The notes: generated from the letters alone by a model not told the origin. Counted from the first letter of the stretch, positions 18,065-47,660 are shown. The stretch is 64,000 nt of DNA from an archaeon (GCA_035528795.1 DATKXY010000274.1:958-64957); one strand, 5' to 3'. Numbers and translations are program-made.

Positions 18065-19276
18065 TTAACCGGCAATCACCTTGAAAGTGCCGTCGGCATA
18101 AAACCGCGGACGGTCGTAAATCCTGACCCCCTTGACCACCCTGCTGATCACCCCGGCCTCAGAGGGGCTGTCGGGTTTCAGGCCGTAGGAAAGCGATTTA
18201 AAGACCCCGAGGCTCTGGCCGATAACGACATAAGCCGGGCTCTGGTAGTCATCGGGAATCTCGCAGCCATGCTCGATCACCAGGTCAGCCGCGGCTTTCA
18301 CCTCGGCATCCGCTTTCCTGCAGACTGCGATCTTTTTCATGCCGATTCCCTTATTCTTGACCCCGTTCATCAGGTCCAGCTCGTAGCGGTGAACCAGGGG
18401 CTCCTCGCTCATGAGATAGACAACCAGGGTGTCGTTATGGACCACCGCTTCCGGGCCGTGGCGCAGTCCCAGGAAACTGTCGAACTTGCCCACCACCTTG
18501 CCGTCTGTCTCCTCCTGGAGCTTGAGGTGGCATTCCTTGGCGCAGCCGAACAGGGTGTTCGAGCCCAGGAAAACCGCTCTCTCGAACGGCTCGCCGCACA
18601 GGGCTTCGAGAGCCCCGGAGTACTGGGCCATGATCTTTTTGCCTGCCGCAGCGAGCTCTTTGGCAATCTTAGCATAACGGGCAGTGTCCTTGATCGAGGC
18701 GATATACTGGCCCGCGACCACCATGCTCGAAAACGAGCTGGTCATGGCCAGGGACTTATCATTGGTTTTCTCTGGCAGAAGGATCAGCAGGCTCCGCCCT
18801 TTGGTCTCCCGGCCCATCTGGGCCAGCTTGCCGTCCTTGTTGCATGTAATCACGATATGTTTTATATCGCTCTTCGATTCCTCGCCCAGCACAAAGGTGC
18901 CCACGCTTTCCGGGCTGTTGCCCGAGCGGGCGAAATGCACCAGGAAATATTTCTTACCTGGCAGAAAGAAAGCCTCCGGGTCAGTGATAATCTCCGTGGT
19001 CCCCACTGCCTTGGCCTTATAATCGCTGACCTTATTGTACAGGCTCTCCAGACAGAGGCCGATAAAAGCCGAGGTCCCGGCGCCGGTGAGCAGGACCGTG
19101 CGATCAGTCTCTCCGCCCAGATAGGAGAGAATCTCCTTTTTCTGCTTTTCGAGAATCGCCAGGGTCTCAAGCCACATCTCGGGCTGCTGGTAAATCTCGG
19201 CGGGGGTGTACTCGGTGCCTTTGGCTTTCTTCTCTTTCCCAGGCGCCTGAATCAGTTTGAGCAATGCATCCGGCAT
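18065..19276 (-). CDS. SIS-domain sugar-phosphate isomerase, AgaS-like (putative galactosamine/tagatose-6-phosphate ketose-aldose isomerase)
   Basis: Two SIS repeats: VLLTGAGTSAFIG...HFARSGNSPESVG and VFLGSNTLFGCAKECHLKL. At 403 aa with a double SIS domain, it matches the AgaS/GlmS C-terminal-like family. Confidence 0.6.
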   Translation of the reverse strand: MPDALLKLIQAPGKEKKAKGTEYTPAEIYQQPEMWLETLAILEKQKKEILSYLGGETDRTVLLTGAGTSAFIGLCLESLYNKVSDYKAKAVGTTEIITDPEAFFLPGKKYFLVHFARSGNSPESVGTFVLGEESKSDIKHIVITCNKDGKLAQMGRETKGRSLLILLPEKTNDKSLAMTSSFSSMVVAGQYIASIKDTARYAKIAKELAAAGKKIMAQYSGALEALCGEPFERAVFLGSNTLFGCAKECHLKLQEETDGKVVGKFDSFLGLRHGPEAVVHNDTLVVYLMSEEPLVHRYELDLMNGVKNKGIGMKKIAVCRKADAEVKAAADLVIEHGCEIPDDYQSPAYVVIGQSLGVFKSLSYGLKPDSPSEAGVISRVVKGVRIYDRPRFYADGTFKVIAG

Positions 19277-19299
19277 TATAAACTCCTTCCAGGTAACTT

Positions 19300-19565
19300 A
19301 ATTATAAAATCTGGATTATCACAAAATTTAGTAAAATGGAATAGGCTTTAGGTCATTTGAAAGCGTTTTTAGCCGGCATTATTCACAAAATTAACCAAAG
19401 CCTGTACGGGCAGGCCCCTGTGCCTGCCCAATGTTTGGGATTTCCTCGATGTAAATCGGGCGGCCACGGGGGGCCGCCACTACAAAAACGGGAACGGAAA
19501 ATTTTTTTATGAATAATGGCGGTTAAACACACTGCCAGACCCACGAATTTTTCGATTTTTTTCTC
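19300..19565. repeat. Structured intergenic repeat element, copy A. It contains two TGTGA(A)TAAT modules (read on the minus strand), two GC-rich 7-bp-stem hairpins, and a 3' module aaaacgggaacggaaaatttttttatgaataatggcggttaaa.
   Basis: 19310-19350 matches 2679-2720. 19371-19392 (gccggcattattcacaaaatta) matches 32251-32270. The hairpins are ggcaggcccctgtgcctgcc and ggcggccacggggggccgcc. 19486-19535 aligns with 32348-32390 at roughly 80% identity. catttgaaagcgtt is also shared with 32640-32655. Confidence 0.55.
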
Positions 19566-19570
19566 ATCAC

Positions 19571-20725
19571 TCATAATCCGGACCTGGCGATCCGGTGCGC
19601 CTCGGCAACCGCCACCGCGAAATCGCGCACATCGATAGGATTGAACGAGGGGAGGTTCTCGTCCCTGGCGATTTGCTCCGCGCTGGTTCCTTTCTGCGCG
19701 GCCATTAAAGTCCTGGCAATCGTTTTGGGGATATCGCTCCTCTTGTCGCCGATAATAATGCTCAGGAAATCATCGCTGCCGAAAGCCTCCCGGCCGAACT
19801 CCCGCAGGCCCGCATCTTTCGAGTAATTGCCATCCTCGACTGCCGGGGAGATCAGGTCCACTCCGAAATCCTCATAGACCAGGGCCTTGCGGCCCGAGCG
19901 CTTCTCGAAATCAGATGTGATCGCTTTCAGGCTCGCGAAGTCGAAACCTTCCTTGTCCTTGTCATCGATCCAGATAGCGAGACGGTCCGGGCCTTGTTTC
20001 TCGACCCGCACGCTGATCAGGGGGTGGGTCTTGACCAGGGCTTTATAGAGCCCGCGCATGTTTTCCACCCCTGAGCTGAAACTGATCCTGCCCGCGGCCC
20101 TGTCGAACTCGACCTTGCTCTCCGGAGCACAGGCTTTTGCAAGCTGGGCCATATCGGGTCTGCGACCCTTGACAAGGGGATGCTCGAGCAGGTTCCCGTT
20201 CCGGTCGCCCTCGATATAGATCGCTCCGGCGCCGGTCGAGTAATTGCCCTGGAAAGCGACTTTCACCCTGCCCTCAGCGGCTGACAAGAGAACATCCCGC
20301 ACGAAATTCAGCGCTTCCTGCTCATTGTAAGGATAGAGGTAGTGAAATTCCCCTTTCCGCTCATAGACCATGCCGTATTCGCCTACAGTGCCTAATCCCT
20401 CCACCTTGAGACGGTTCTCCTTGAAAAATTCCATGCTCATCAGGTCCCAGCCGGTGCAAAGGGTGACCTCGATACCCCGGACGCCGATCAGGTAGCTGAT
20501 AGCCTCGCTCGATCCGGGGTACGGCGTAAGCTCGGAGTCGTCGCAGTCCACTATCGGTCCGTTGACATCCAGGCCGCAAACGATATTTCCGCCGACATTC
20601 CGGCCGGTCTCCCGGCTCACCTTGAGTATATCCCCGATCAGGTCGACCAGCTTGTCTTTGTCGAGCGCCAGTTTTTGCGCAATCTTTTCCACAGGCGCGG
20701 ACAGCTTAATTTCTGAAAAAGACAT
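19571..20725 (-). CDS. Hypothetical protein, possibly a HAD-like hydrolase. The call is weak.
   Basis: 384 aa. The C-terminal IIIGDKRSD resembles HAD motif IV (GDxxxD), but motif I (LDVNGPI) is atypical. Co-directional with the AgaS-like gene. Confidence 0.3.
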   Translation of the reverse strand: MSFSEIKLSAPVEKIAQKLALDKDKLVDLIGDILKVSRETGRNVGGNIVCGLDVNGPIVDCDDSELTPYPGSSEAISYLIGVRGIEVTLCTGWDLMSMEFFKENRLKVEGLGTVGEYGMVYERKGEFHYLYPYNEQEALNFVRDVLLSAAEGRVKVAFQGNYSTGAGAIYIEGDRNGNLLEHPLVKGRRPDMAQLAKACAPESKVEFDRAAGRISFSSGVENMRGLYKALVKTHPLISVRVEKQGPDRLAIWIDDKDKEGFDFASLKAITSDFEKRSGRKALVYEDFGVDLISPAVEDGNYSKDAGLREFGREAFGSDDFLSIIIGDKRSDIPKTIARTLMAAQKGTSAEQIARDENLPSFNPIDVRDFAVAVAEAHRIARSGL

Positions 20726-22988: not shown

Positions 22989-23019
22989 TTTCATTTAATC
23001 TTTAAACAAGAAGGTTAAA

Positions 23020-23808
23020 ATGAAAAAGTTATTAGCTGTTTTGGCTGCAATTTCTGTCATTTTCATCCTTTATTTCGCCTGCGAGACAGACGATCCCAAG
23101 CTTTCTTCCTCCCCCGAATTAGCTGCTGCAGAAAAAGAGGTTGCCACTTTATCAGTTTCCATAAAAACAAACGGAGGGCCGGTCAGGAAATTTAAGCTTC
23201 AGGCAATCGAGTGGGATGGAGTACAGGATATCCAACCCGATAAGTTTTATGAGATGTCAGCAGAAAAAAGGAATTCCTTTCAGGAAAAATTAGAAACCCA
23301 GAGAGGTAAGAAAGCAACAGGAGTAAAAACGAAAGTATCCGTAAACAGAGACAGTCCGGAATTGGCGGGGTGGGATTCAGCACCGGGTTTATTCGCTTAT
23401 GCTTCTGCTGAATGTTTTACTAGCAGCTGCCATGGCTCCTGTCAGACTACTGCAAGTCAATATTACTATAATACCAAGACACATGAACATGAGTTTTGCA
23501 GTCCGGGAAAATATCGTTATTACTCTCATGAAGATGAATTCTCAGAATGGAGTGAAATAGATACGCAATACGACAATGATGACCCCCGATTAACCTGTGA
23601 GAGTATTTTAGTAAGAGATGATTATTATTATGCTTGGTGGGATACTATAAGTGTATGGAGAATAAGATTAGCTGCAATGCCTGGAGGAGATGATGACGAA
23701 AAAGATAATCCTCCTTCCCCACCATATGATTGGGAGGATATTGTAATTCAAAAATGGATAAAAATTCCAGGGGATGCTGTCAACGCAAGTGATAATTGTG
23801 GCAACTGA
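23020..23808 (+). CDS. Putative lipoprotein (262 aa) of unknown function, AT-rich and probably horizontally acquired.
   Basis: MKKLLAVLAAISVIFILYFAC signal with a Cys lipobox-like end. Codon usage is AT-rich in a roughly 60% GC genome. The protein has an acidic, Tyr/Trp-rich C-terminal half. Confidence 0.55.
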   Translation: MKKLLAVLAAISVIFILYFACETDDPKLSSSPELAAAEKEVATLSVSIKTNGGPVRKFKLQAIEWDGVQDIQPDKFYEMSAEKRNSFQEKLETQRGKKATGVKTKVSVNRDSPELAGWDSAPGLFAYASAECFTSSCHGSCQTTASQYYYNTKTHEHEFCSPGKYRYYSHEDEFSEWSEIDTQYDNDDPRLTCESILVRDDYYYAWWDTISVWRIRLAAMPGGDDDEKDNPPSPPYDWEDIVIQKWIKIPGDAVNASDNCGN

Positions 23809-24174
23809 AAGACAATGGATTGAAGTCCATCGTATCCGAGTGCTTGATTCACTTACTTATAACAGGATATCTGTTTTTCGCAATTATAGAGTACTCATTA
23901 ATGTATTAGATTAAACCTTCTTTCAGGCGGTCAAGGTTCTCACAATTAGCCTTGTCTGCCTGAAAGACTTCTATGAAGATATTCTAATTTTTTTTTGTGT
24001 ATAAATAGTTAAAGTGTTTTTTTAACGTATGAAACCATTATTTCATACAAGATTCGGTTAAAGCATTAATAACAGTTTTTCTTAATTCTTTAAACATTCA
24101 GCTTAGAATTCAGATTATTCCCCTGATCCCTCCACTTTAAAGCCGTAAAGTACAATCAAACAGGCTTTCCCCTG

Positions 24175-26515: not shown

Positions 26516-27925
26516 TTACTTCTTCAACCTTACCACCACGCAGCGCTGCATATCCCTGGCCCTTGCCGCTCCGGCCTTTTCGACCGGAAATTTCCCGCCA
26601 GCCAGAGCTGCCAGGCGAGCCTGGTCCACTCCCTCTCCGGTCAGGTAATCCCGGACAGCATGGGCCCTTCTGAAAGAAATCCCCAGACTGTTTTTGCTCT
26701 CGCCTGCCTGGTCAGCATAGCCGATGATCTCGAGCTTCACCCAGTCCGCTGATTTCAGAAGGCGGGCAAGCTGCTCCAACTGGCTGTAGAACCCCGGTTT
26801 GATCTGTGAGCTGTTGAGATCGAAAAACACCTGCAAGTAGAAATCTTCCGCACCGATTAGCGGGCAGCCTTTTTCATCCACCGGAAGAGAGGCCGGGGTG
26901 CCAGGGCACTGGTCAATCCCGTCAGGAACACCATCACGGTCCGAATCGAGCATCCGGCCGCTTTGATCGACCACCGCGCCCCTGGGTGTGTCGGGTTCGA
27001 GGTCAAGGTCATCAGGCACGCTGTCACCATCCGAATCAGGGAGCGGAACCGGTTCCTCTTCCTTGACTACCAAATTTTCAAGCGGACAGCCCTGGTCGTC
27101 CACCTGCACGCCTGCCGGAGTGTCCGGGCACATGTCCAGATAATCAGGCACCCCGTCACTGTCCATGTCAACCGGGCAGCCGCTCTTTGTGACTGCAACC
27201 TCCGGCGGGGTGTCCGGGCATTCGTCCATCTCATCCTGCACACCGTCCCTGTCCGTGTCCACTGCCTCTTTGGCCACCTTGCCGAAAAGGATAGTCACCC
27301 CTGCGCCGAACTCCCAGTTGTGGGTCTCCCGGTCTCCGCGCAAATCACTGTCAATAAAGTCGCGCTCCAGGTAATGGTCATGCACATCACAGCACAAACC
27401 GACATAGCTTTGCAAGAAATACTCAAAGCCGGCGCCGAAAATTATCAGGTCGCGCTTTTCACTCTTTTCGCTATCCAGCCCGGCACTGTTAGTCTTATCA
27501 ATAGCATAGTCGAACTTCATCTCGGCCTGTCCCAGAGCCACTGAAAGATAAGGCACGAAAGAGCCGAGAGGCAGATTTATGCGGGCACCCCCGCCATATG
27601 CGTCATAACGCGCGCTGTTTGGCAGCAGACCCTGCTGGCCCTCGGAAACGACCCCTTTAAGGCCGCGCATATAGAAGCCTTCAATCCCGAGAACAGAGCA
27701 CAGGTCAAAGCCTGCCCTTGCTCCCCACAGGGGCCCGTTCTCCAGAAGATTGGCCGGCTGATACTCCATCCAGTGGCCGAGCACGGGACTGACATACAGG
27801 GTGCCCAGCCTGTGGTTTGCCTGGACCGGCCGGGTCCAGACAAAAAAGACCGCCAATAACCCAGCAAGCCGGATAAAGCCTGGATTGATCAAGCGCATTG
27901 TTTCTCTAAAAAAAAAACGAGACAT
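26516..27925 (-). CDS. OmpA-family outer-membrane protein with an N-terminal beta-barrel-like domain and thrombospondin type-3 (TSP3) Ca-binding repeats
   Basis: Signal peptide, then repeated D-x-D-x-DG-x-x-D-x-x-D-x-CPDTP units (DTDRDGVQDEMDECPDTP, DMDSDGVPDYLDMCPDTP, DSDRDGVPDGIDQCPGTP). The C-terminus is OmpA-like (ESKNSLGISFRRAHAVRDYL). Confidence 0.75.
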   Translation of the reverse strand: MSRFFFRETMRLINPGFIRLAGLLAVFFVWTRPVQANHRLGTLYVSPVLGHWMEYQPANLLENGPLWGARAGFDLCSVLGIEGFYMRGLKGVVSEGQQGLLPNSARYDAYGGGARINLPLGSFVPYLSVALGQAEMKFDYAIDKTNSAGLDSEKSEKRDLIIFGAGFEYFLQSYVGLCCDVHDHYLERDFIDSDLRGDRETHNWEFGAGVTILFGKVAKEAVDTDRDGVQDEMDECPDTPPEVAVTKSGCPVDMDSDGVPDYLDMCPDTPAGVQVDDQGCPLENLVVKEEEPVPLPDSDGDSVPDDLDLEPDTPRGAVVDQSGRMLDSDRDGVPDGIDQCPGTPASLPVDEKGCPLIGAEDFYLQVFFDLNSSQIKPGFYSQLEQLARLLKSADWVKLEIIGYADQAGESKNSLGISFRRAHAVRDYLTGEGVDQARLAALAGGKFPVEKAGAARARDMQRCVVVRLKK

Positions 27926-27956: not shown

Positions 27957-29336
27957 TTAATGCTTTAACCTAACAATTACGCAGCGCTGCAGCGATTTAT
28001 CCCTTGCGGGCTTGCCCGGTTCGACAGGAAACTCTCCGCCGGCCAGCAGCTCCAGGCGACCCTCAGCAACTCCCTCGCTCACCAGATAATCCCGGACAGC
28101 CCGGGCCCTTCTTTCGGAAAGTCTGAGATTGGACTCCAAGGAACCGAGATTGTCTGTGTAGCCTATCAGCTCAAGCTCCACTTTGGGAGCTAATTTCATG
28201 AGCTGCGCAATCCGGACCATGTCGCCAAAGAACCGGGCCCCGACCTGAGCCCGATTACTCGGGAATAAAACTTCCAGATAAAACTCTTGCGGGGTCACGC
28301 GGGAGCAGCCTTTTTCATCCACCGGGAGATTGGGCGGAGAGTCAGGGCACTTGTCAATACCGTCGGGAACTCCGTCACTGTCCGAATCAACCGTCCTGCC
28401 GCTTGCATCGACCACCGCGCCTTTTGGAGTGTTCGGTTCAATGTCTAGTTGGTCTATTATACCGTCGCCGTCTTTATCAGCGGGAGGCACAGGTTTTTCT
28501 ACCGCTTTCTTTTCCACCGGGCAGCCCTGTTCATCTACCCGGGTGCCGGCCGGGGTATCCGGGCAGCGGTCCAGGTAATCCGGCACCCCATCCTGGTCTT
28601 TATCGATCGGGCAGCCGTTAGAGTAAACCTCGACTCCAAGCGGTGTACCTGGACACTGGTCTTTTTCATCCGGGATCCCGTCGCTGTCGGAGTCCACCAC
28701 CTTCTTCTCTACTCTGCCGAAAAGGATCGTAATTCCGGCGCCCACCTCCAGGTTGTGGTTCTTACGGTCGCCGCGCAAATCGCCGTCAATAAAATCGCGG
28801 TCCAGGTAATGGTCATAGGCTTCGAAACGCAAGCCCAGATGCCTGTTAACGAAGCATTCAAAGCCTGCACCGAAAACAAGCAGCTTACGTTTTTCATTTT
28901 TTTCTACAGAGACCGGCTCCCCATTGATATCTCTGATCGGGGAATCGAGCTGCATTTCGGCCCGCCCGGTAGAGACTGAAAAAAACGGGACTACGGGGCC
29001 GAGCGGAAGAGTGATGCGGGCTCCGACACCGTATGCATCATAGCGCGCAGATTGTTTTAATTTTCCAGGCGTATCGTCCGGGCTGATCTCCGATGGTCCG
29101 CGCATATAGAAACCTTCAATCCCTAAAACAGGGCAGAAATCGAGGCCTCCTCTTACTCCCCACAGCGGTCCGTCATCCAGACGGTTGGCGACGTAATAAT
29201 CCATCCAGTGGCCCAGCACAGGGCTGACATGCAAGGTGCCTGCGCGGTGGTTGCCCGCAGCCGCAGGCTGAACCCAGACAAAAAATACAGCCAGGACCAA
29301 AAGCCGGAATAAAATCTGACGAAATAACTGCATCAT
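27957..29336 (-). CDS. Paralogous OmpA-family/TSP3-repeat outer-membrane protein (tandem duplicate of 26516..27925)
   Basis: Same architecture and about 55-60% identity by eye (GTLHVSPVLGHWMDY..., DSDSDGIPDEKDQCPGTP, LSERRARAVRDYL). Confidence 0.75.
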   Translation of the reverse strand: MMQLFRQILFRLLVLAVFFVWVQPAAAGNHRAGTLHVSPVLGHWMDYYVANRLDDGPLWGVRGGLDFCPVLGIEGFYMRGPSEISPDDTPGKLKQSARYDAYGVGARITLPLGPVVPFFSVSTGRAEMQLDSPIRDINGEPVSVEKNEKRKLLVFGAGFECFVNRHLGLRFEAYDHYLDRDFIDGDLRGDRKNHNLEVGAGITILFGRVEKKVVDSDSDGIPDEKDQCPGTPLGVEVYSNGCPIDKDQDGVPDYLDRCPDTPAGTRVDEQGCPVEKKAVEKPVPPADKDGDGIIDQLDIEPNTPKGAVVDASGRTVDSDSDGVPDGIDKCPDSPPNLPVDEKGCSRVTPQEFYLEVLFPSNRAQVGARFFGDMVRIAQLMKLAPKVELELIGYTDNLGSLESNLRLSERRARAVRDYLVSEGVAEGRLELLAGGEFPVEPGKPARDKSLQRCVIVRLKH

Positions 29337-29440: not shown

Positions 29441-29824
29441 GAAATTTATCGCAATCTATTCAGTTGATCGACCTGAGATCATTCTCGATCTGTTTTTAAG
29501 GAGAATTCAGGAGACAGAAGTCAGGAGTCAGCCATTCATGGCGCTTCGCGTCACCCTGAAAGAAACGAAAATATATAGATCTGTAGGGACACAGCATGCT
29601 GTGTCCGTTCATTGGCCATTATTTAAACCAAGATATTCGACCAATTGGATATGTATTTTCATAGTAGAATATAAAATTTTCCCCCCTGCCCCAAGTAACC
29701 TGCCCCGGCCTTTTCTACCATGCTTCGGACTCGATGTATTTGGGGCGGGGACCACTGACTACTGACTCCTGTATTCTGTATTCTCACATCGACAATTTGT
29801 TGTCGATGTAGGCGCATTAAGCGC

Positions 29825-30568
29825 CTAATAACAGTGCAACTGGGAAGCGAAACAGGCGCGGATCCGGTCTGTGCGGGCCTGATCGCTGACAGATACCACA
29901 GGGGGCTCCTCCCCGGCTCGGGCCATTTTTTCGGCAACCCTGATCACCAGGCAATTGATAATGAAAGAATGCAGAATGGTCGCCACAGCCCCCACTTTTA
30001 TTTCCGGATAGCCTTTTACTGGAATAACAGTCTCCTGGGGGTCCATGTGGTTGTCGATAACCATATCTGCCACCTCGAACAGGTTCTTGCCGGTAGGGTG
30101 GCGGTTGGCTGCGGCTTCCGGCACGGAGCGGGAGAAAGCCGGGCAGGTTATGGCTATCACTTTTGCGCCTAGCTCCCTGGCCCGGATAGCGGCCTGGACA
30201 CAAACAGCGTTGAAGCCATAAGCATTGGCGATAATCAACACATCCCCCTGGCCGATCCCGTAATAAGCCAGACAGGCGTCGGCATGTGAGCTTTGTCCCT
30301 CGAGGCGGTGGGCGAAACGCATACCGTTGGCTGCACTTAACGATATATCCAGCAGTGCGTTAATCGGTATCAATCCGCCCTTGCGGCAGAAAGCATCCTC
30401 GGCGGCGATATTGCTGTGCACCCCGGGACCATAAATATGGACGACCTTGCCCTGGCGAAACCTCTGTAGCATGGCTTCCGCTGCTGAGTCGATAACATGG
30501 CGCTCATTTTCGAGCACCTTGCCAAGACAGGCGCTAACATATTCCAGATATTGAGCTAAACCATCCAC
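29825..30568 (-). CDS. SIS-domain phosphosugar-binding protein (single SIS, about 247 aa)
   Basis: VHIYGPGVHSNIAAED ... DVLIIANAYGFNAVCVQAAIRARELGAKVIAIT matches the SIS-domain glycine-rich and Ser/Thr-loop patterns. Confidence 0.5.
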   Translation of the reverse strand: MDGLAQYLEYVSACLGKVLENERHVIDSAAEAMLQRFRQGKVVHIYGPGVHSNIAAEDAFCRKGGLIPINALLDISLSAANGMRFAHRLEGQSSHADACLAYYGIGQGDVLIIANAYGFNAVCVQAAIRARELGAKVIAITCPAFSRSVPEAAANRHPTGKNLFEVADMVIDNHMDPQETVIPVKGYPEIKVGAVATILHSFIINCLVIRVAEKMARAGEEPPVVSVSDQARTDRIRACFASQLHCY

Positions 30569-30621: not shown

Positions 30622-32220
30622 TCAGCTCTCTTTCTCCAGACTTTCCCCATCTAAGGATTTGGACTCCAGATTCAAGGAAGTGGGCACTATCTTACCTGTC
30701 TGGCGGTGGAGATAACCTGGTATTTTCTCGTGGCTTGCCGGGGTAACCTCTTCATCGTACCCATTTTTAGCAGCGATTGCCGCCCCGATCAGCATTATCC
30801 CACCCCCGACAAAAATCGACTCTCCATATCCGCCGATAGTCAAATAGTAGAGCACACCGACCATAATGGCCAGGACCAATACCAGGGGCAAAGCAAAAAT
30901 CATTTTTTTAAATGCATTGGTCATACGGATATTCCCGGACAAATTATCGAAATAATAATTAATGACCTGATTTGCAGCTCTCTGGGATGAATCGAAATAA
31001 AAAAAATTTCCAAGACAGGTAAGAATAAAAAATTCCTGTTCCATCTTGGAGGTGTACTTGCCGTATAAATAATGCTCTTCTTTGTCCAGGCTTTTGATTA
31101 CCGCCACAACATAGCCTCCAGACAGCCGGTAACACTGTCCCTCTTTTACTGGTGATTGAAGATTGTAGAGCACCTCGGAGCGCAGAAAAAACTTGCCTTT
31201 CTTGGTCTGCTTTGCCTGACTGAAAAAGCTGTTACTGATAGTCCGCCGCGCATGAGACATATCTGAGCCTGCGACAGCCGGGCAGACAAAATCATATTGC
31301 AAGGCCACTTCATGAGCGCCTATCACCGCTTTAGAGCGAATATAGTCTTTGAGGCTCGAGACACCATTTTCCTCTATCTCCGCCACAATGATTTCGATAT
31401 ACAACTCCAGCATGACTTTCCTGAGACGGCTGAATTCACAGGGGTATTCGCTGAACATTTCGAACAACTGATCGCATTTTGCAGCAGCTTCACCTTTAAA
31501 TGTATTCTCCAGGGTGAGATTTTCCTTAATATCCATAATCTTCTTGGAGGCTTCCGCCATTTTATAATCTAGGTAGTTCTTGCTCACCAGGTTTTCATTA
31601 AAAACAGCAGGCAATCCCACCTCGCTAATTATCGCGTTAATGCTCAAATCGCTCTCTGGAACTCCTTTGAGCACGCGGTAGCGGGAATTAAAGAATTTGT
31701 GGAGGCCTTTATCCCAGATGTAATCGTACAACCGCATGAGCTCGAGCTCCTGGATCAGCTCGATCAACCGCTCGTTGGACTGATTGCCGAAAATCATAAA
31801 ATAGAGCTTTTTCAGCTCCTGATTCTCAAGCTCCCGGGCACCAAACAAATTGACCAGGCTTTTCCCCTCCGCCCTGGGAGAAAGCATTAGCTGGAGCGTG
31901 GCGATCTCACAACTTTTCGGCATCTGGTCAAGCTGGAAAACCCCGGCCGCTTTTCTGTCAAGAAATTTATCGAGCAGCGTTAAACTTATACCATGCCTTA
32001 AAGAAATAGCTGACATGCCGCCGTAATTTCTGGCCAATATCTCCTCTATTATCTGGGCGAAATATTCAACTTCCTCGGCCCCCTCGACCAATGTGGGCAG
32101 ACGGCTTAGCTTGATCTGATCCCTGATGTAATTTTTATTGATCATCCAGGTACCAGTTTTTGCAACGGAACCTGCAGGAGAAAAATGCTCCGACCCGATT
32201 TCCATTTTATTTTCGGACAT
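30622..32220 (-). CDS. Hypothetical 532-aa protein with two C-terminal TM helices and a possible N-terminal HTH. Low-GC gene.
   Basis: No family recognised. MSAISLRHGISLTLLDKFL resembles an XRE-type helix-turn-helix. The C-terminus MIFALPLVLVLAIMVGVLYYL...IMLIGAAIAA contains TM helices. Codon usage is AT-rich. Confidence 0.45.
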   Translation of the reverse strand: MSENKMEIGSEHFSPAGSVAKTGTWMINKNYIRDQIKLSRLPTLVEGAEEVEYFAQIIEEILARNYGGMSAISLRHGISLTLLDKFLDRKAAGVFQLDQMPKSCEIATLQLMLSPRAEGKSLVNLFGARELENQELKKLYFMIFGNQSNERLIELIQELELMRLYDYIWDKGLHKFFNSRYRVLKGVPESDLSINAIISEVGLPAVFNENLVSKNYLDYKMAEASKKIMDIKENLTLENTFKGEAAAKCDQLFEMFSEYPCEFSRLRKVMLELYIEIIVAEIEENGVSSLKDYIRSKAVIGAHEVALQYDFVCPAVAGSDMSHARRTISNSFFSQAKQTKKGKFFLRSEVLYNLQSPVKEGQCYRLSGGYVVAVIKSLDKEEHYLYGKYTSKMEQEFFILTCLGNFFYFDSSQRAANQVINYYFDNLSGNIRMTNAFKKMIFALPLVLVLAIMVGVLYYLTIGGYGESIFVGGGIMLIGAAIAAKNGYDEEVTPASHEKIPGYLHRQTGKIVPTSLNLESKSLDGESLEKES

Positions 32221-32224
32221 AATG

Positions 32225-32395
32225 ATCAGAATATTAACCCGTATTATTCACAAATTACCACAAAACTCGTAGGAGCGGACCGATGTGTCCGCCCGTCGTT
32301 CGGTAATTTTTCAATGGTAATCGGGCGCACACGCGGGTGCGCCCCTTCAAAAAACGAGAACAGAAAATTTTTATGAATTTTCCGGGTTAAATAAA
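32225..32395. repeat. Structured intergenic repeat element, copy B. It lies immediately 5' of the 30622..32220 gene.
   Basis: It contains attattcacaaatt (TGTGAATAAT on the minus strand), the hairpin gggcgcacacgcgggtgcgccc, and aaaacgagaacagaaaatttttatgaattttccgggttaaa. It is homologous to copy A (19371-19535). Confidence 0.55.
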
Positions 32396-32665
32396 TAAAT
32401 ATAATAAAATAGTTCTTCTATTGATTAATTCGCAACTATTTTTTAAAAATCAAGGAAACCCGCTAGACTTTCAGTGCACATGGCTGTTAAACCGGAAAGG
32501 CTAAAAGCGTGTTGATTATTAACCATTCACATTGGATTGAAATGAAAAGACGCCTGAGGGATATTGTTAAATCCTAATATATCAATAATTTGCATTGGCG
32601 GTTCGCCAACCGCCCCTACGATCCGGGTACCTTTAATCATTTGAAAGCGTTGTTTCAACCTATTT

Positions 32666-33415
32666 CTAAACCTCCCGATTAATGATAGAGGCTGCATATG
32701 CAGCGCCGAAACCATTATCGATATTGACAACCGTCACACCGGCGGAGCATGAATTGAGCATGGTCAGCAAGGCGGACAGACCGCCGAAGCTTGCGCCATA
32801 GCCCACGCTGGTAGGCACTGCAATTACCGGCCGGTCCACCAGGCCGCCGACAACCGAGGCCAAAGCTCCTTCCATGCCGGCAACCACAATCACCACAGCA
32901 GCCGAAACCAGATCATCCTTGCGGTAAAGGAGACGGTGGAGTCCGGCCACACCTACATCGTAGATCCGCTGTACAGGGCTGCCCAAAACTTCCGCGGTGA
33001 CCGCCGCCTCCTCAGCAATGGGAATGTCGCTGGTGCCGGCGCAAACCACTGTTATCGTGCCCCGCATTTTCGGCGGCTTCCCTTTGGACACAGAAACGAT
33101 TCGCGCCTTCTCATGGTAGACAGCCTCCGGAAAAGCTTCTTTTATAAGCCCGGCTACACTCTGCGTAACCCTGGTGGCCAGCAGGCTGCTGCCTTGCTCG
33201 AGAATGCGCTGGGCAATCGCTAATACCTGCTCGGGCGATTTGCCCAGGCAGAAAATAACCTCCGGAAAACCGCTGCGCAGTTCGCGGTGATGGTCCACTA
33301 CCGCAAAACCCAGCTCCTCAAACGGCAGAGTCTTGAGCATTGCCATCGCCTGCTCGACAGTAAGCTCTCCCTTTTTGAGCCGGGTCAGGATTTTTTTTAT
33401 CCGCTCAGGGTGCAT
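32666..33415 (-). CDS. LarB-like PurE-related (NCAIR mutase-like) protein, a putative nickel-pincer cofactor biosynthesis carboxylase/hydrolase
   Basis: 249 aa. The C-terminal VVIVVAGMEGALASVVGGLVDRPVIAVPTSVGYG is PurE-like. An N-terminal extension of about 100 aa is typical of LarB. Confidence 0.5.
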   Translation of the reverse strand: MHPERIKKILTRLKKGELTVEQAMAMLKTLPFEELGFAVVDHHRELRSGFPEVIFCLGKSPEQVLAIAQRILEQGSSLLATRVTQSVAGLIKEAFPEAVYHEKARIVSVSKGKPPKMRGTITVVCAGTSDIPIAEEAAVTAEVLGSPVQRIYDVGVAGLHRLLYRKDDLVSAAVVIVVAGMEGALASVVGGLVDRPVIAVPTSVGYGASFGGLSALLTMLNSCSAGVTVVNIDNGFGAAYAASIINREV

Positions 33416-34392: not shown

Positions 34393-34439
34393 TATTCACA
34401 ATTTGCTCTTTGACTGAATTATTCATAAACCAGCATACC

Positions 34440-34680
34440 CTCGCTTGGGCACAACGAAGCATGAAAATCAAGAAGACACACCCGGTCCGCTTCGCGCCCC
34501 ACCCCTCTCAAGAGGGGACTTTCATGTAAATTCCCCCAAGCCCTGCGTAGGTGGACCTGTCTGTCCGACCGAAGGCTGATATGTTTCGGTCAGGCCAGGG
34601 CGCACGCACAGGTGCGTCCCTGCCCAAACACCGGGATGACATTTTTACGAATAATCCGGACTGCAAGATATTATTAAAAA
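34440..34680. repeat. Structured intergenic repeat element, copy C (a more diverged relative of copies A and B)
   Basis: cagggcgcacgcacaggtgcgtccctg plus gacatttttacgaataatccgga parallels the copy B modules gggcgcacacgcgggtgcgcccc and atttttatgaattttccggg. Confidence 0.4.
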
Positions 34681-47439: not shown

Positions 47440-47660
47440 GTTCCACGGATCCAGTTTATGCGGCGGGCGGAGAATGTCTTGAGCGCCCGCACTATTTCGG
47501 GCAATCCAGGAGTAGGGGCGGGTTTTAAACCCGCCCTCCCGGCTGTGAATAATCGTGACCTTTCAGGCGAATCGAACCACGGTGATAGTTCGTTAAGGGC
47601 GGGTTTGAAACCCGCCCCTACCAGTAAAAATGTCTGGATTGAATAATACGTCATAATATT
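47440..47660. repeat. Structured repeat element, copy D. It is a tandem duplication of a module made of a perfect GC palindrome plus TGAATAAT.
   Basis: GGGCGGGTTTTAAACCCGCCC (47516-47536, a perfect 21-nt palindrome) and GGGCGGGTTTGAAACCCGCCC (47597-47617), 81 bp apart. Each is followed within 10-23 nt by TGAATAAT (47546-47553 and 47640-47647). The core matches the TGTGAATAAT motif of copies A and B. Confidence 0.55.

Follow-up and report, generated by a model that had tools for sequence, protein, structure and literature searches.

The intergenic repeat modules in the 64-kb stretch of DNA analyzed here (the window) are, with a probability of about 0.9, either copies or fragments of miniature non-coding transposons (MITEs) with ends matching the IS1380 family of insertion sequences. 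The elements are non-coding, 150-180 bp in length, and bounded by a terminal inverted repeat of about 17 nt, CCnGnATTATTCAYAAA, which is the end sequence of an ISSsu5-like clade of IS1380-family insertion sequences. They possess inverted repeats and target duplications, are dispersed in multiple copies, include a nested insertion, and have ends identical to those of autonomous IS1380 elements. We read the repeats of the window as selfish mobile DNA and not as a shared regulatory cassette, and any influence of the MITEs on adjacent genes would be incidental. The family itself is new, but the kind of element is well known and no new mechanism is involved; no description of an IS1380-derived MITE family was found in the open-access literature searched.

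Judged by sequence features, the elements can be classed both as MITEs and as derivatives of IS1380. Complete copies measure 149-180 bp (copy A, 2679-2858; copy B, 19373-19522; copy C, 32238-32386), and they show no coding capacity, all copies in the window lying between called genes. Each of 22 distinct full-length copies in a wider collection is likewise intergenic, and sensitive blastn together with a family profile located six loci in 64 kb. The inverted repeat starts with CC and matches those of IS1380-family members, and direct repeats of 4-5 bp flank the elements; direct repeats of 4-5 bp and CC ends are characteristic of the IS1380 family.

The window comes from a metagenome and corresponds to contig k141_2287135 of ENA ERZ27256834. 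Each intergenic region was compared with the whole 64-kb window by sensitive blastn. The sequence-only reading had held that intergenic regions of the window share modules, and these proved real, far beyond chance, and at or near the positions it had given. The strongest match, with 72% identity over 161 nt (E 2e-21), joined 19369-19527 and 32234-32391. Positions 2677-2736 and 19308-19368 were 82% identical over 62 nt (E 7e-10), and 32252-32385 and 34528-34659 were 66% identical over 140 nt (E 2e-6). Comparison of 34564-34659 with 1530-1625 (73% over 97 nt, E 1e-11) revealed a sixth copy that had escaped the earlier reading. Pairwise identity had been put at 75-95%, but the values within the window were 66-82%. 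The boundaries of the elements had been misplaced, the true extents being 2679-2858, 19310-19368 plus 19373-19522, 32238-32386, and 34413-34660.

Examination of the short sequences common to the copies revealed that the exact 12-mer ATTATTCAYAAA occurs five times in the window, and the two-anchor pattern ATTATTCAYAAA-N95-125-TTTTTAYGAAT was found twice, compared with none in 100 shuffles. ATTATTCAYAAA is the reverse complement of the AT core TGTGAATAAT, which had been described as a module of its own that always reads in the same sense as the downstream gene. Neither description holds, as complete elements carry the core at both ends in opposite senses. ATTATTCAYAAA is found mostly in inverted pairs that bound elements, at 19378(+)/19506(-) and 34418(+)/34644(-), and at 32243(+) it opposes a degenerate partner at 32368-32386. 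Because ATTATTCAYAAA pairs in inverted orientation, the AT core TGTGAATAAT forms one arm of a single terminal inverted repeat, and the sequence that had been taken for a third module (...gaaaatttttatgaat..ccgg) forms the other. The ends of copy B are complementary (CCGGCATTATTCACAAA with CCGCCATTATTCATAAA), and in alignment A3, 10 of the 17 inverted-repeat pairs keep their complementarity in 21 or more of the 22 copies.

The copies in the window, all annotated on the plus strand, differ in completeness. Copy A (2679-2858) is a complete 180-bp A-type MITE with the ends TCTGGATTATTCACAAAA on the left and TTTTATGAAGAATAATCCGAG on the right, flanked by a direct 5-bp duplication, CTTAA, at 2674-2678 and 2859-2863, and it is 86-89% identical to A-type copies in the metagenome contigs L126 (10564-10799) and L134 (7924-7538, interrupted). 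Copy B1 (19310-19368) is the left-end fragment of an A-type element (TCTGGATTAT-CACAAAATTTAGTAAAATGGAATAGG...) that also matches the A-type copies of L134 and L126; one T is missing from its inverted repeat, and it stops at the TTAG where copy B starts. The fragment holds catttgaaagcgtt, which had been proposed as a fourth module, but this sequence is not independently significant (E 0.14) and is simply interior to the truncated A-type copy.

Copy B (19373-19522) is a complete 150-bp B-type MITE with the ends CCGGCATTATTCACAAAA (left) and TTTTTTTATGAATAATGGCGG (right) and with TTAG (19369-19372) and TTAA (19523-26) as its flanks. Its interior runs from GTAC and the hairpin GGGCAGGC/GCCTGCCC through a spacer to the hairpin GGCGGCC/GGCCGCC and CTAC. 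It matches the family profile with an E of 8e-51; five B-type copies of the same metagenomes share 92-94% identity with it, and a sixth, degenerate one shares 86%. When folded (-62 kcal/mol, z -4.4), the inverted-repeat arms are paired and both hairpins are formed. Copy C (32238-32386) is a complete 149-bp C-type MITE, ending in CCCGTATTATTCACAAATT on the left and TTTTTATGAATTTTCCGGG on the right, with the hairpins GCGGAC/GTCCGC and GGGCGCAC/GTGCGCCC. It lies within a direct TTAA duplication (32234-37 and 32387-90), matches the profile with an E of 2e-53, and is 90-95% identical to nine C-type copies. The four hairpins quoted in the sequence-only reading are all present as written.

The remaining copies are truncated or composite. 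Copy D1 (34413-34537) is a D-type MITE with the left end ACTGAATTATTCATAAA, a different interior, and the degenerate right end TTTCATGTAAATTCCCCC; its positions 34416-34530 are 90% identical over 115 nt to 556-445 of L133 and diverge beyond. It is adjoined by copy D2 (34538-34660), a 5'-truncated B/C-like MITE with the right end TTTTTACGAATAATCCGGA, whose interior consists of GTAGG and a hairpin followed by the hairpin GGGCGCAC/GTGCGTCCC, and which matches the profile at 34527-34673 (E 5e-14). The flanks of the D1 and D2 composite are unlike (TTTG and CTGC). Copy Z (1526-1626), the sixth copy, is a 5'-truncated MITE that retains a degenerate hairpin region and the right inverted repeat TTTTTTCTGAATAATCCGGG, with ATTATTCAGAAA at 1610-1621 on the minus strand. 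It is matched by the family profile at 1526-1636 (E 6e-5). A Mem_trans gene (minus strand, 1649-2605) borders it on one side, and on the other lies a GH35 gene, with its 5' end toward the copy.

The region at 47440-47660 had been counted as a further copy, but it is not a full one and contains only two REP-like palindromes and remnants of inverted repeats, and the family profile gives no match there. One palindrome, GTAGGGGCGGGTTTTAAACCCGCCCT, lies at 47512-47540, and the other, AGGGCGGGTTTGAAACCCGCCCCTAC, at 47594-47621 in inverted orientation relative to it; the first forms the inverted pair I3, being 96% complementary with 47596-47621. Between them, at 47541-47557 on the minus strand, is ATTATTCACAGCC (= TGTGAATAAT), the fourth occurrence of the 10-mer in the window, which we regard as a decayed inverted-repeat remnant because the profile does not match. 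A short junction at 47632-47647 on the plus strand, TCTGGATT|GAATAAT, with TTATTCA at 47640-46 on the minus strand, could represent a left and a right inverted repeat that are reduced to their outer parts and directly joined, and may be a decayed or deleted element. The palindrome at 47512-47540 belongs to a separate small repeat family that has its GTAGGGGCG head in common with the MITE hairpins. The arm of the second palindrome (47594-47629) recurs in L131, L134, L135, and L137, and an 8-mer census gave about 12 recurrences of the GTAGGGGCGGGTTT palindrome.

At least four subfamilies (A, B, C, and D) coexist, with the ends and some subterminal sequence in common and with differing interiors. 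The mosaic, reshuffled look of the repeats is thus due to the presence of several subfamilies together with nested insertion, abutting copies, and truncation. JGI metagenomes were scanned with three anchors, a more specific search that returned 21 loci, mostly in samples that also hold the window contig. From the metagenomes holding the window contig, 17 further distinct full-length B/C-like copies were recovered. The set of 22 distinct full-length B/C-like copies comprises those from the window, its source metagenomes, two Glassbacteria MAGs, and a few other samples. Median pairwise identity was 92% among B-type and 93% among C-type copies, and approximately 70% between the two.

Target-site duplications flank many of the elements. 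In 48 of 128 elements the 4-mers on the two sides are the same, compared with a mean of 9.7 when flanks were shuffled (maximum 20 in 2000), and the 5-mers agree in 7 of the 128, compared with 0.8. YTAR emerges as the target consensus, with TTAA as the most frequent class. Among near-identical copies, the bases outside the conserved ends vary and yet match directly on both sides, with duplications of 4 bp (TTAT/TTAT, CTAA/CTAA twice, ATAA/ATAA, and TTAA/TTAA) and of 5 bp (ATTAA/ATTAA and TTGAA/TTGAA). The YTAR flanks first suggested a MITE of the IS630/Tc1 type, which has a TA duplication and NTAN/CTAG targets; this assignment was rejected because the direct duplications are of 4-5 bp and the ends match IS1380.

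Comparison of individual loci was also informative as to mobility. A B-type copy with CTAA duplications interrupts the A-type element of L134, and the A-type paralogues in L126 and at 2679-2858 of the window are uninterrupted at the same point. The copies in L127 and L131 are identical at 150 of 150 positions, and their flanks differ (TTAA and CTAA). Other assemblies of the window locus were 99.98-100% identical without length differences and provided no orthologous empty site, so the case for mobility rests on the nested insertion and the identical paralogues. Several other assemblies of the window population break at the positions of the repeats, and the MITEs explain these breaks.

The relationship to IS1380 is supported by autonomous elements. 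Viral contigs were scanned for the 17-nt end, and a single locus was found with an inverted partner 1,649 bp away. This element (L149, 2723-4371) is 1,649 bp in length, has CCTGAATTATTCATA at both ends, is flanked by a TTTAG duplication, and encodes a 440-aa transposase that scores 388 bits on the NCBIfam model NF033539, 'IS1380 family transposase' (cut-off 180), and 476 bits on Pfam PF13701. As an unbiased check, four annotated IS1380-family elements of plasmids were chosen by protein similarity alone. Their ends are CCTGAAT(T/A)ATTCATA or CCTGAAATATTCATA, and three of the four have matching 4-5-bp duplications. The Priestia element ends in CCTGAATTATTCATA and has a TTTTA duplication, the Enterococcus faecium element ends in CCTGAATAATTCATA with a TATAA duplication, ISSsu5 has the same CCTGAATAATTCATA end but unlike flanks, and the Alicyclobacillus element ends in CCTGAAATATTCATAGCG with an ATAT duplication.

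The autonomous elements therefore resemble the window family in their ends (CCTGAAT(T/A)ATTCATA compared with CCnGnATTATTCAYAAA, both starting with CC) and in their AT-rich direct target duplications of 4-5 bp. They differ in being 1.65-1.7 kb in length, whereas the window elements are 150-180 bp and lack a transposase; the interiors of the autonomous elements examined are unrelated to those of the window MITEs, and their hosts are Firmicutes and Proteobacteria rather than uncultured sediment-type phyla. More distant relatives in the family are ISEcp1, which has the IRL CCTAGATTCTACGT and 5-bp direct repeats (PMC6061673), and IS1247, which is 1672 bp with 5-bp direct repeats (PMC3281130). The IRL of ISEcp1 shares CCT.GATT with the window ends.

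No IS1380-family transposase gene was identified in the window or in approximately 298 kb of related metagenome sequence, and tblastn with the L149 transposase returned no other copy in 1.57 Mb of fetched sequence. The transposase that mobilizes the MITEs in the window organism would be of the IS1380 type, a DDE enzyme supplied in trans and expected to bind both ends of an element. The same enzyme would then excise or copy the MITE, with insertion into AT-rich YTAR-like sites in intergenic DNA and duplication of 4-5 bp. A blastn search of plasmids with a 39-nt end yielded chance-level matches only (E at or above 0.04), and the end sequences ATTATTCATAAA and TTTATGAATAAT, when sought in the full-text literature, retrieved only unrelated papers.

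The same ends are widespread. A scan of one genome per species, with both inverted-repeat arms as anchors, yielded at least 110 loci. Among those listed, 80 carry extended CCnGn ends on both sides, and these belong to MAGs of Aminicenantes, Zixibacteria, Victivallales, Ignavibacteria, Glassbacteria, and Bacteroidetes and to MAGs labelled 'Eubacteriales'; the remaining 30, found in AT-rich genomes, seem to match by chance. The ends are constant across lineages (cTAaCCTGrATTATTCATAAA), and the interiors are specific to each. Interiors like those of copies B and C were found in the two Glassbacteria MAGs (L005 and L049), and on that account the window organism may be a relative. Inverted end pairs 0.9-3.5 kb apart among the at least 110 loci listed were examined as candidate autonomous elements, and were rejected because the eight pairs of up to 2 kb that were inspected proved to be separate MITEs flanking ordinary genes. 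All-against-all clustering of ORFs among the same at least 110 loci revealed no shared transposase. Several poorly studied phyla thus harbor abundant MITEs that have one IS1380-type end in common and interiors particular to each lineage, and this end sequence should be a useful marker for repeat annotation, for transposase activity, and for horizontal transfer among sediment bacteria.

The orientation of the AT core and its placement upstream of start codons had been thought to favor a regulatory or transcribed role, and the most direct form of that idea is a shared promoter-operator cassette in which the TGTGAATAAT core would serve as a promoter element or binding site, placed and oriented relative to the downstream gene. 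Genes were called by a codon-usage score, which reproduced the reference calls at 17-36 kb except for one low-GC ORF. The left ends of A, B1, C, and D1 do stand 18-74 nt away from start codons on the minus strand, and some IS1380-family elements, such as ISEcp1 and ISPme1, carry outward promoters (PMC9330008). Against this, the core is present in both orientations within every complete element, and the larger set of 22 full-length copies shows neither the orientation bias nor the fixed upstream position that had been claimed: among copies with co-directional flanking genes, 6 have the same direction and 11 the opposite (p=0.33), a gene start lies opposite the TGTGAATAAT end in 12 of 22 copies and a gene 3' end or nothing in the other 10, and the distance from element to neighboring gene varies between 5 and more than 1000 nt. 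That the few copies in the window all point one way is therefore a small-sample effect in a region of mostly minus-strand genes. No sigma-70-type promoter was found in a scan of 19200-19650, and the single one found at 32150-32720 lies outside the element (32537-32565) and within shuffle expectation, so that none falls inside the elements; terminator-like sites were not in excess in elements in the two intergenic regions scanned. As the same ends also stand beside unrelated genes in unrelated phyla, we consider a regulatory cassette highly improbable. It follows from the MITE reading that these intergenic repeats should be masked in annotation as mobile-element relics and that they are unsuitable for mining as regulons or small-RNA genes.

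The two GC-rich hairpins raise other questions. Both belong to the conserved interior of the B and C subfamilies, in the arrangement GTAG-hairpin ... hairpin-CTAC, and pairing reaches 97% in one stem and 94% in the other across the 22 distinct B/C-like copies; in alignment A3, GTAG is invariant or nearly so before hairpin 1, as is CTAC after hairpin 2. A family of small genes for structured RNAs, or of RNA elements acting in cis, under selection for both hairpins would account for this pairing, for the strong folding (z -3.4 to -4.4), and for four stem positions that are changed on both sides between the B and C subfamilies with pairing kept. Folding is equal on both strands, however, as inverted-repeat DNA is expected to be. 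The covariation check that had been suggested for the hairpins came out divided: the score is elevated (0.153 compared with 0.075 when shuffled, 0/500), but the number of pairs with double changes equals that in shuffles (7 compared with 7.0). Because the double changes represent approximately one event each, the split between B and C, the case for selection on hairpin structure is suggestive and not strong. A search of the window against Rfam 15 gave no match at gathering scores, and at E<=1 only matches to miRNA models far below threshold. With neither promoter or terminator signatures nor a consistent orientation among the elements, an RNA function is extremely unlikely as the explanation of the family.

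The GTAG and CTAC motifs bring to mind REP, BIME, and REPIN sequences, which are defined by GTAG-headed imperfect palindromes in inverted doublets. Were the elements of that type, the paired GTAG-headed GC palindromes would be the functional unit, mobilized by a REP-associated tyrosine transposase (RAYT), and the AT-rich ends would be incidental. The MITE interiors do contain such doublets, with a conserved GTAG(G) head or CTAC tail on both hairpins, and the window itself holds an inverted palindrome doublet at 47512-47621. The 8-mer GTAGGGGC occurs at 59 sites in 298 kb, always followed by a GC hairpin, and some of these hairpins are stand-alone palindromes outside any MITE. Moreover, the arrangement GTAG-hairpin ... 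hairpin-CTAC recurs in those elements of Zixibacteria and Ignavibacteria that have the same ends. The copied unit, however, takes in the AT-rich terminal inverted repeats as well and has 4-5-bp duplications on either side, and the REPs of REP/RAYT systems are not known to make such duplications. Aminicenantes and Victivallales elements with the same ends are without such hairpin pairs, no RAYT gene was noticed, the hairpin sequences vary between subfamilies, a further difference from REP elements, and GTAG and CTAC may merely extend the long-range inverted symmetry of the element. A REP origin for the copied unit is thus very unlikely, and of the 'REP/MITE-like' dispersed family of small non-coding elements proposed from sequence, it is the MITE that the inverted repeats, the 4-5-bp duplications, the many copies, and the autonomous IS1380 relative bear out.

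Within the MITE reading, the strong conservation of the GTAG/CTAC-flanked hairpins is not explained by transposition alone. One idea, which we consider unlikely, is that the GTAG-hairpin ... hairpin-CTAC interior is a functional module acquired or kept independently by IS1380-type MITEs in different phyla (the Glassbacteria type and the Zixibacteria/Ignavibacteria type). It could take the form of a REP doublet that makes the element a substrate for both a DDE transposase of the IS1380 family and a Y1 RAYT, or of an RNA or DNA hairpin pair that insulates or stabilizes neighboring transcripts. If the idea were true, the stand-alone GTAGGGGCG-headed palindromes found in that metagenome would represent the other side of a single system.

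In their overall form the window elements conform to well-known bacterial MITEs. Correia elements, RUP, ERIC, and Nezha are short, non-coding, intergenic, strongly folding sequences with inverted repeats and target duplications, present in high copy number; like the window elements, they include several subfamilies and nested or truncated copies. The MaeMITEs of Microcystis are also comparable (PMC2779907). The window family differs from all of these in the transposase family of origin, and in having ends that carry lineage-specific interiors across several phyla. Eukaryotic relatives of IS1380 are found in the piggyBac superfamily, for which IS1380 has been used as an outgroup (PMC10813416). 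The window elements differ from piggyBac in being prokaryotic, non-autonomous, and far smaller, and in having a relaxed target (YTAR, sometimes 5 bp), but they resemble it in a 4-bp target duplication centered on TA, for which TTAA is the commonest class here.

Short elements of 127-147 bp carrying the same IS1380-type ends as the window MITEs (non-coding elements of 150-180 bp) were abundant on genome contigs among the matches listed, where their host MAGs were assigned to the Aminicenantes, Zixibacteria, Victivallales, Ignavibacteria and Bacteroidetes. The interiors of these elements were lineage-specific and unrelated despite the common ends, and an interior of the form GTAG-hairpin ... hairpin-CTAC was also found in the elements of Zixibacteria and Ignavibacteria. 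Aminicenantes-like elements were additionally present, among the matches listed, in several MAGs labelled "uncultured Eubacteriales", which suggests either mislabelling or transfer. The autonomous element of the IS1380 family whose ends match (L149, 2723-4371) may be phage-borne, since it is carried on an IMG/VR viral contig and lies 47 nt away from a 308-aa ORF.

Nearly perfect palindromes of the form GTAGGGGCGGGTTT(C/G/T)AAACCCGCCCCTAC were found to stand alone, in multiple copies and outside any MITE, both in the window (47512-47540 and 47594-47621) and in the related metagenome loci L131 (2416-2452), L134 (1889-1925 and 5606-5641), L135 (8214-8250) and L137 (13336-13370). Within the 298 kb of related metagenome sequence scanned, GTAGGGGC occurred at 59 sites, each of them leading into a GC hairpin whose stem varies. 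The stand-alone palindromes look like a REP-like family whose head is common to the MITE hairpins.

A further repeat family appears to occupy window positions 29500-29830. This region contains an inverted pair, GGAGAATTCAGGAGACAGAAGTCAGGAGTCAG (29500-29531) and CTGACTACTGACTCCTGTATTCTGTATTCTC (29758-29788), as well as a GTAGGGACACAGCATGCTGTGTCC hairpin, and the segment at 29755-29830 is 98.7% identical over 76 nt to positions 1909-1984 of the related metagenome locus L128. The motif of the inverted pair is also contained in the A-type MITE, at 2752-2785.

Contigs of the same population obtained from other samples (L115, L116, L003, L120 and L119) begin or stop at or beside the window repeats, with start or end points at 1664, 2817, 19498, 47329 and 47567, consistent with short-read assemblies having been broken by these repeats.

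The public gene call for a GH35 protein (759 aa, minus strand) begins at 1596, with a GTG within a 5'-truncated MITE copy (1526-1626); this start codon was probably mis-called, the real start being further downstream. Two OmpA-family genes with TSP_3 repeats (Pfam), at 26516-27925 and 27957-29336, are tandem paralogues in which long segments spaced 1435-1441 nt apart (repeat families D1-D4) share 72-78% identity. The stretch at 23000-24000, which may be foreign DNA, has a GC content of 39% versus about 53% elsewhere and contains a 262-aa ORF (23020-23808) for which no Pfam hit is recorded.
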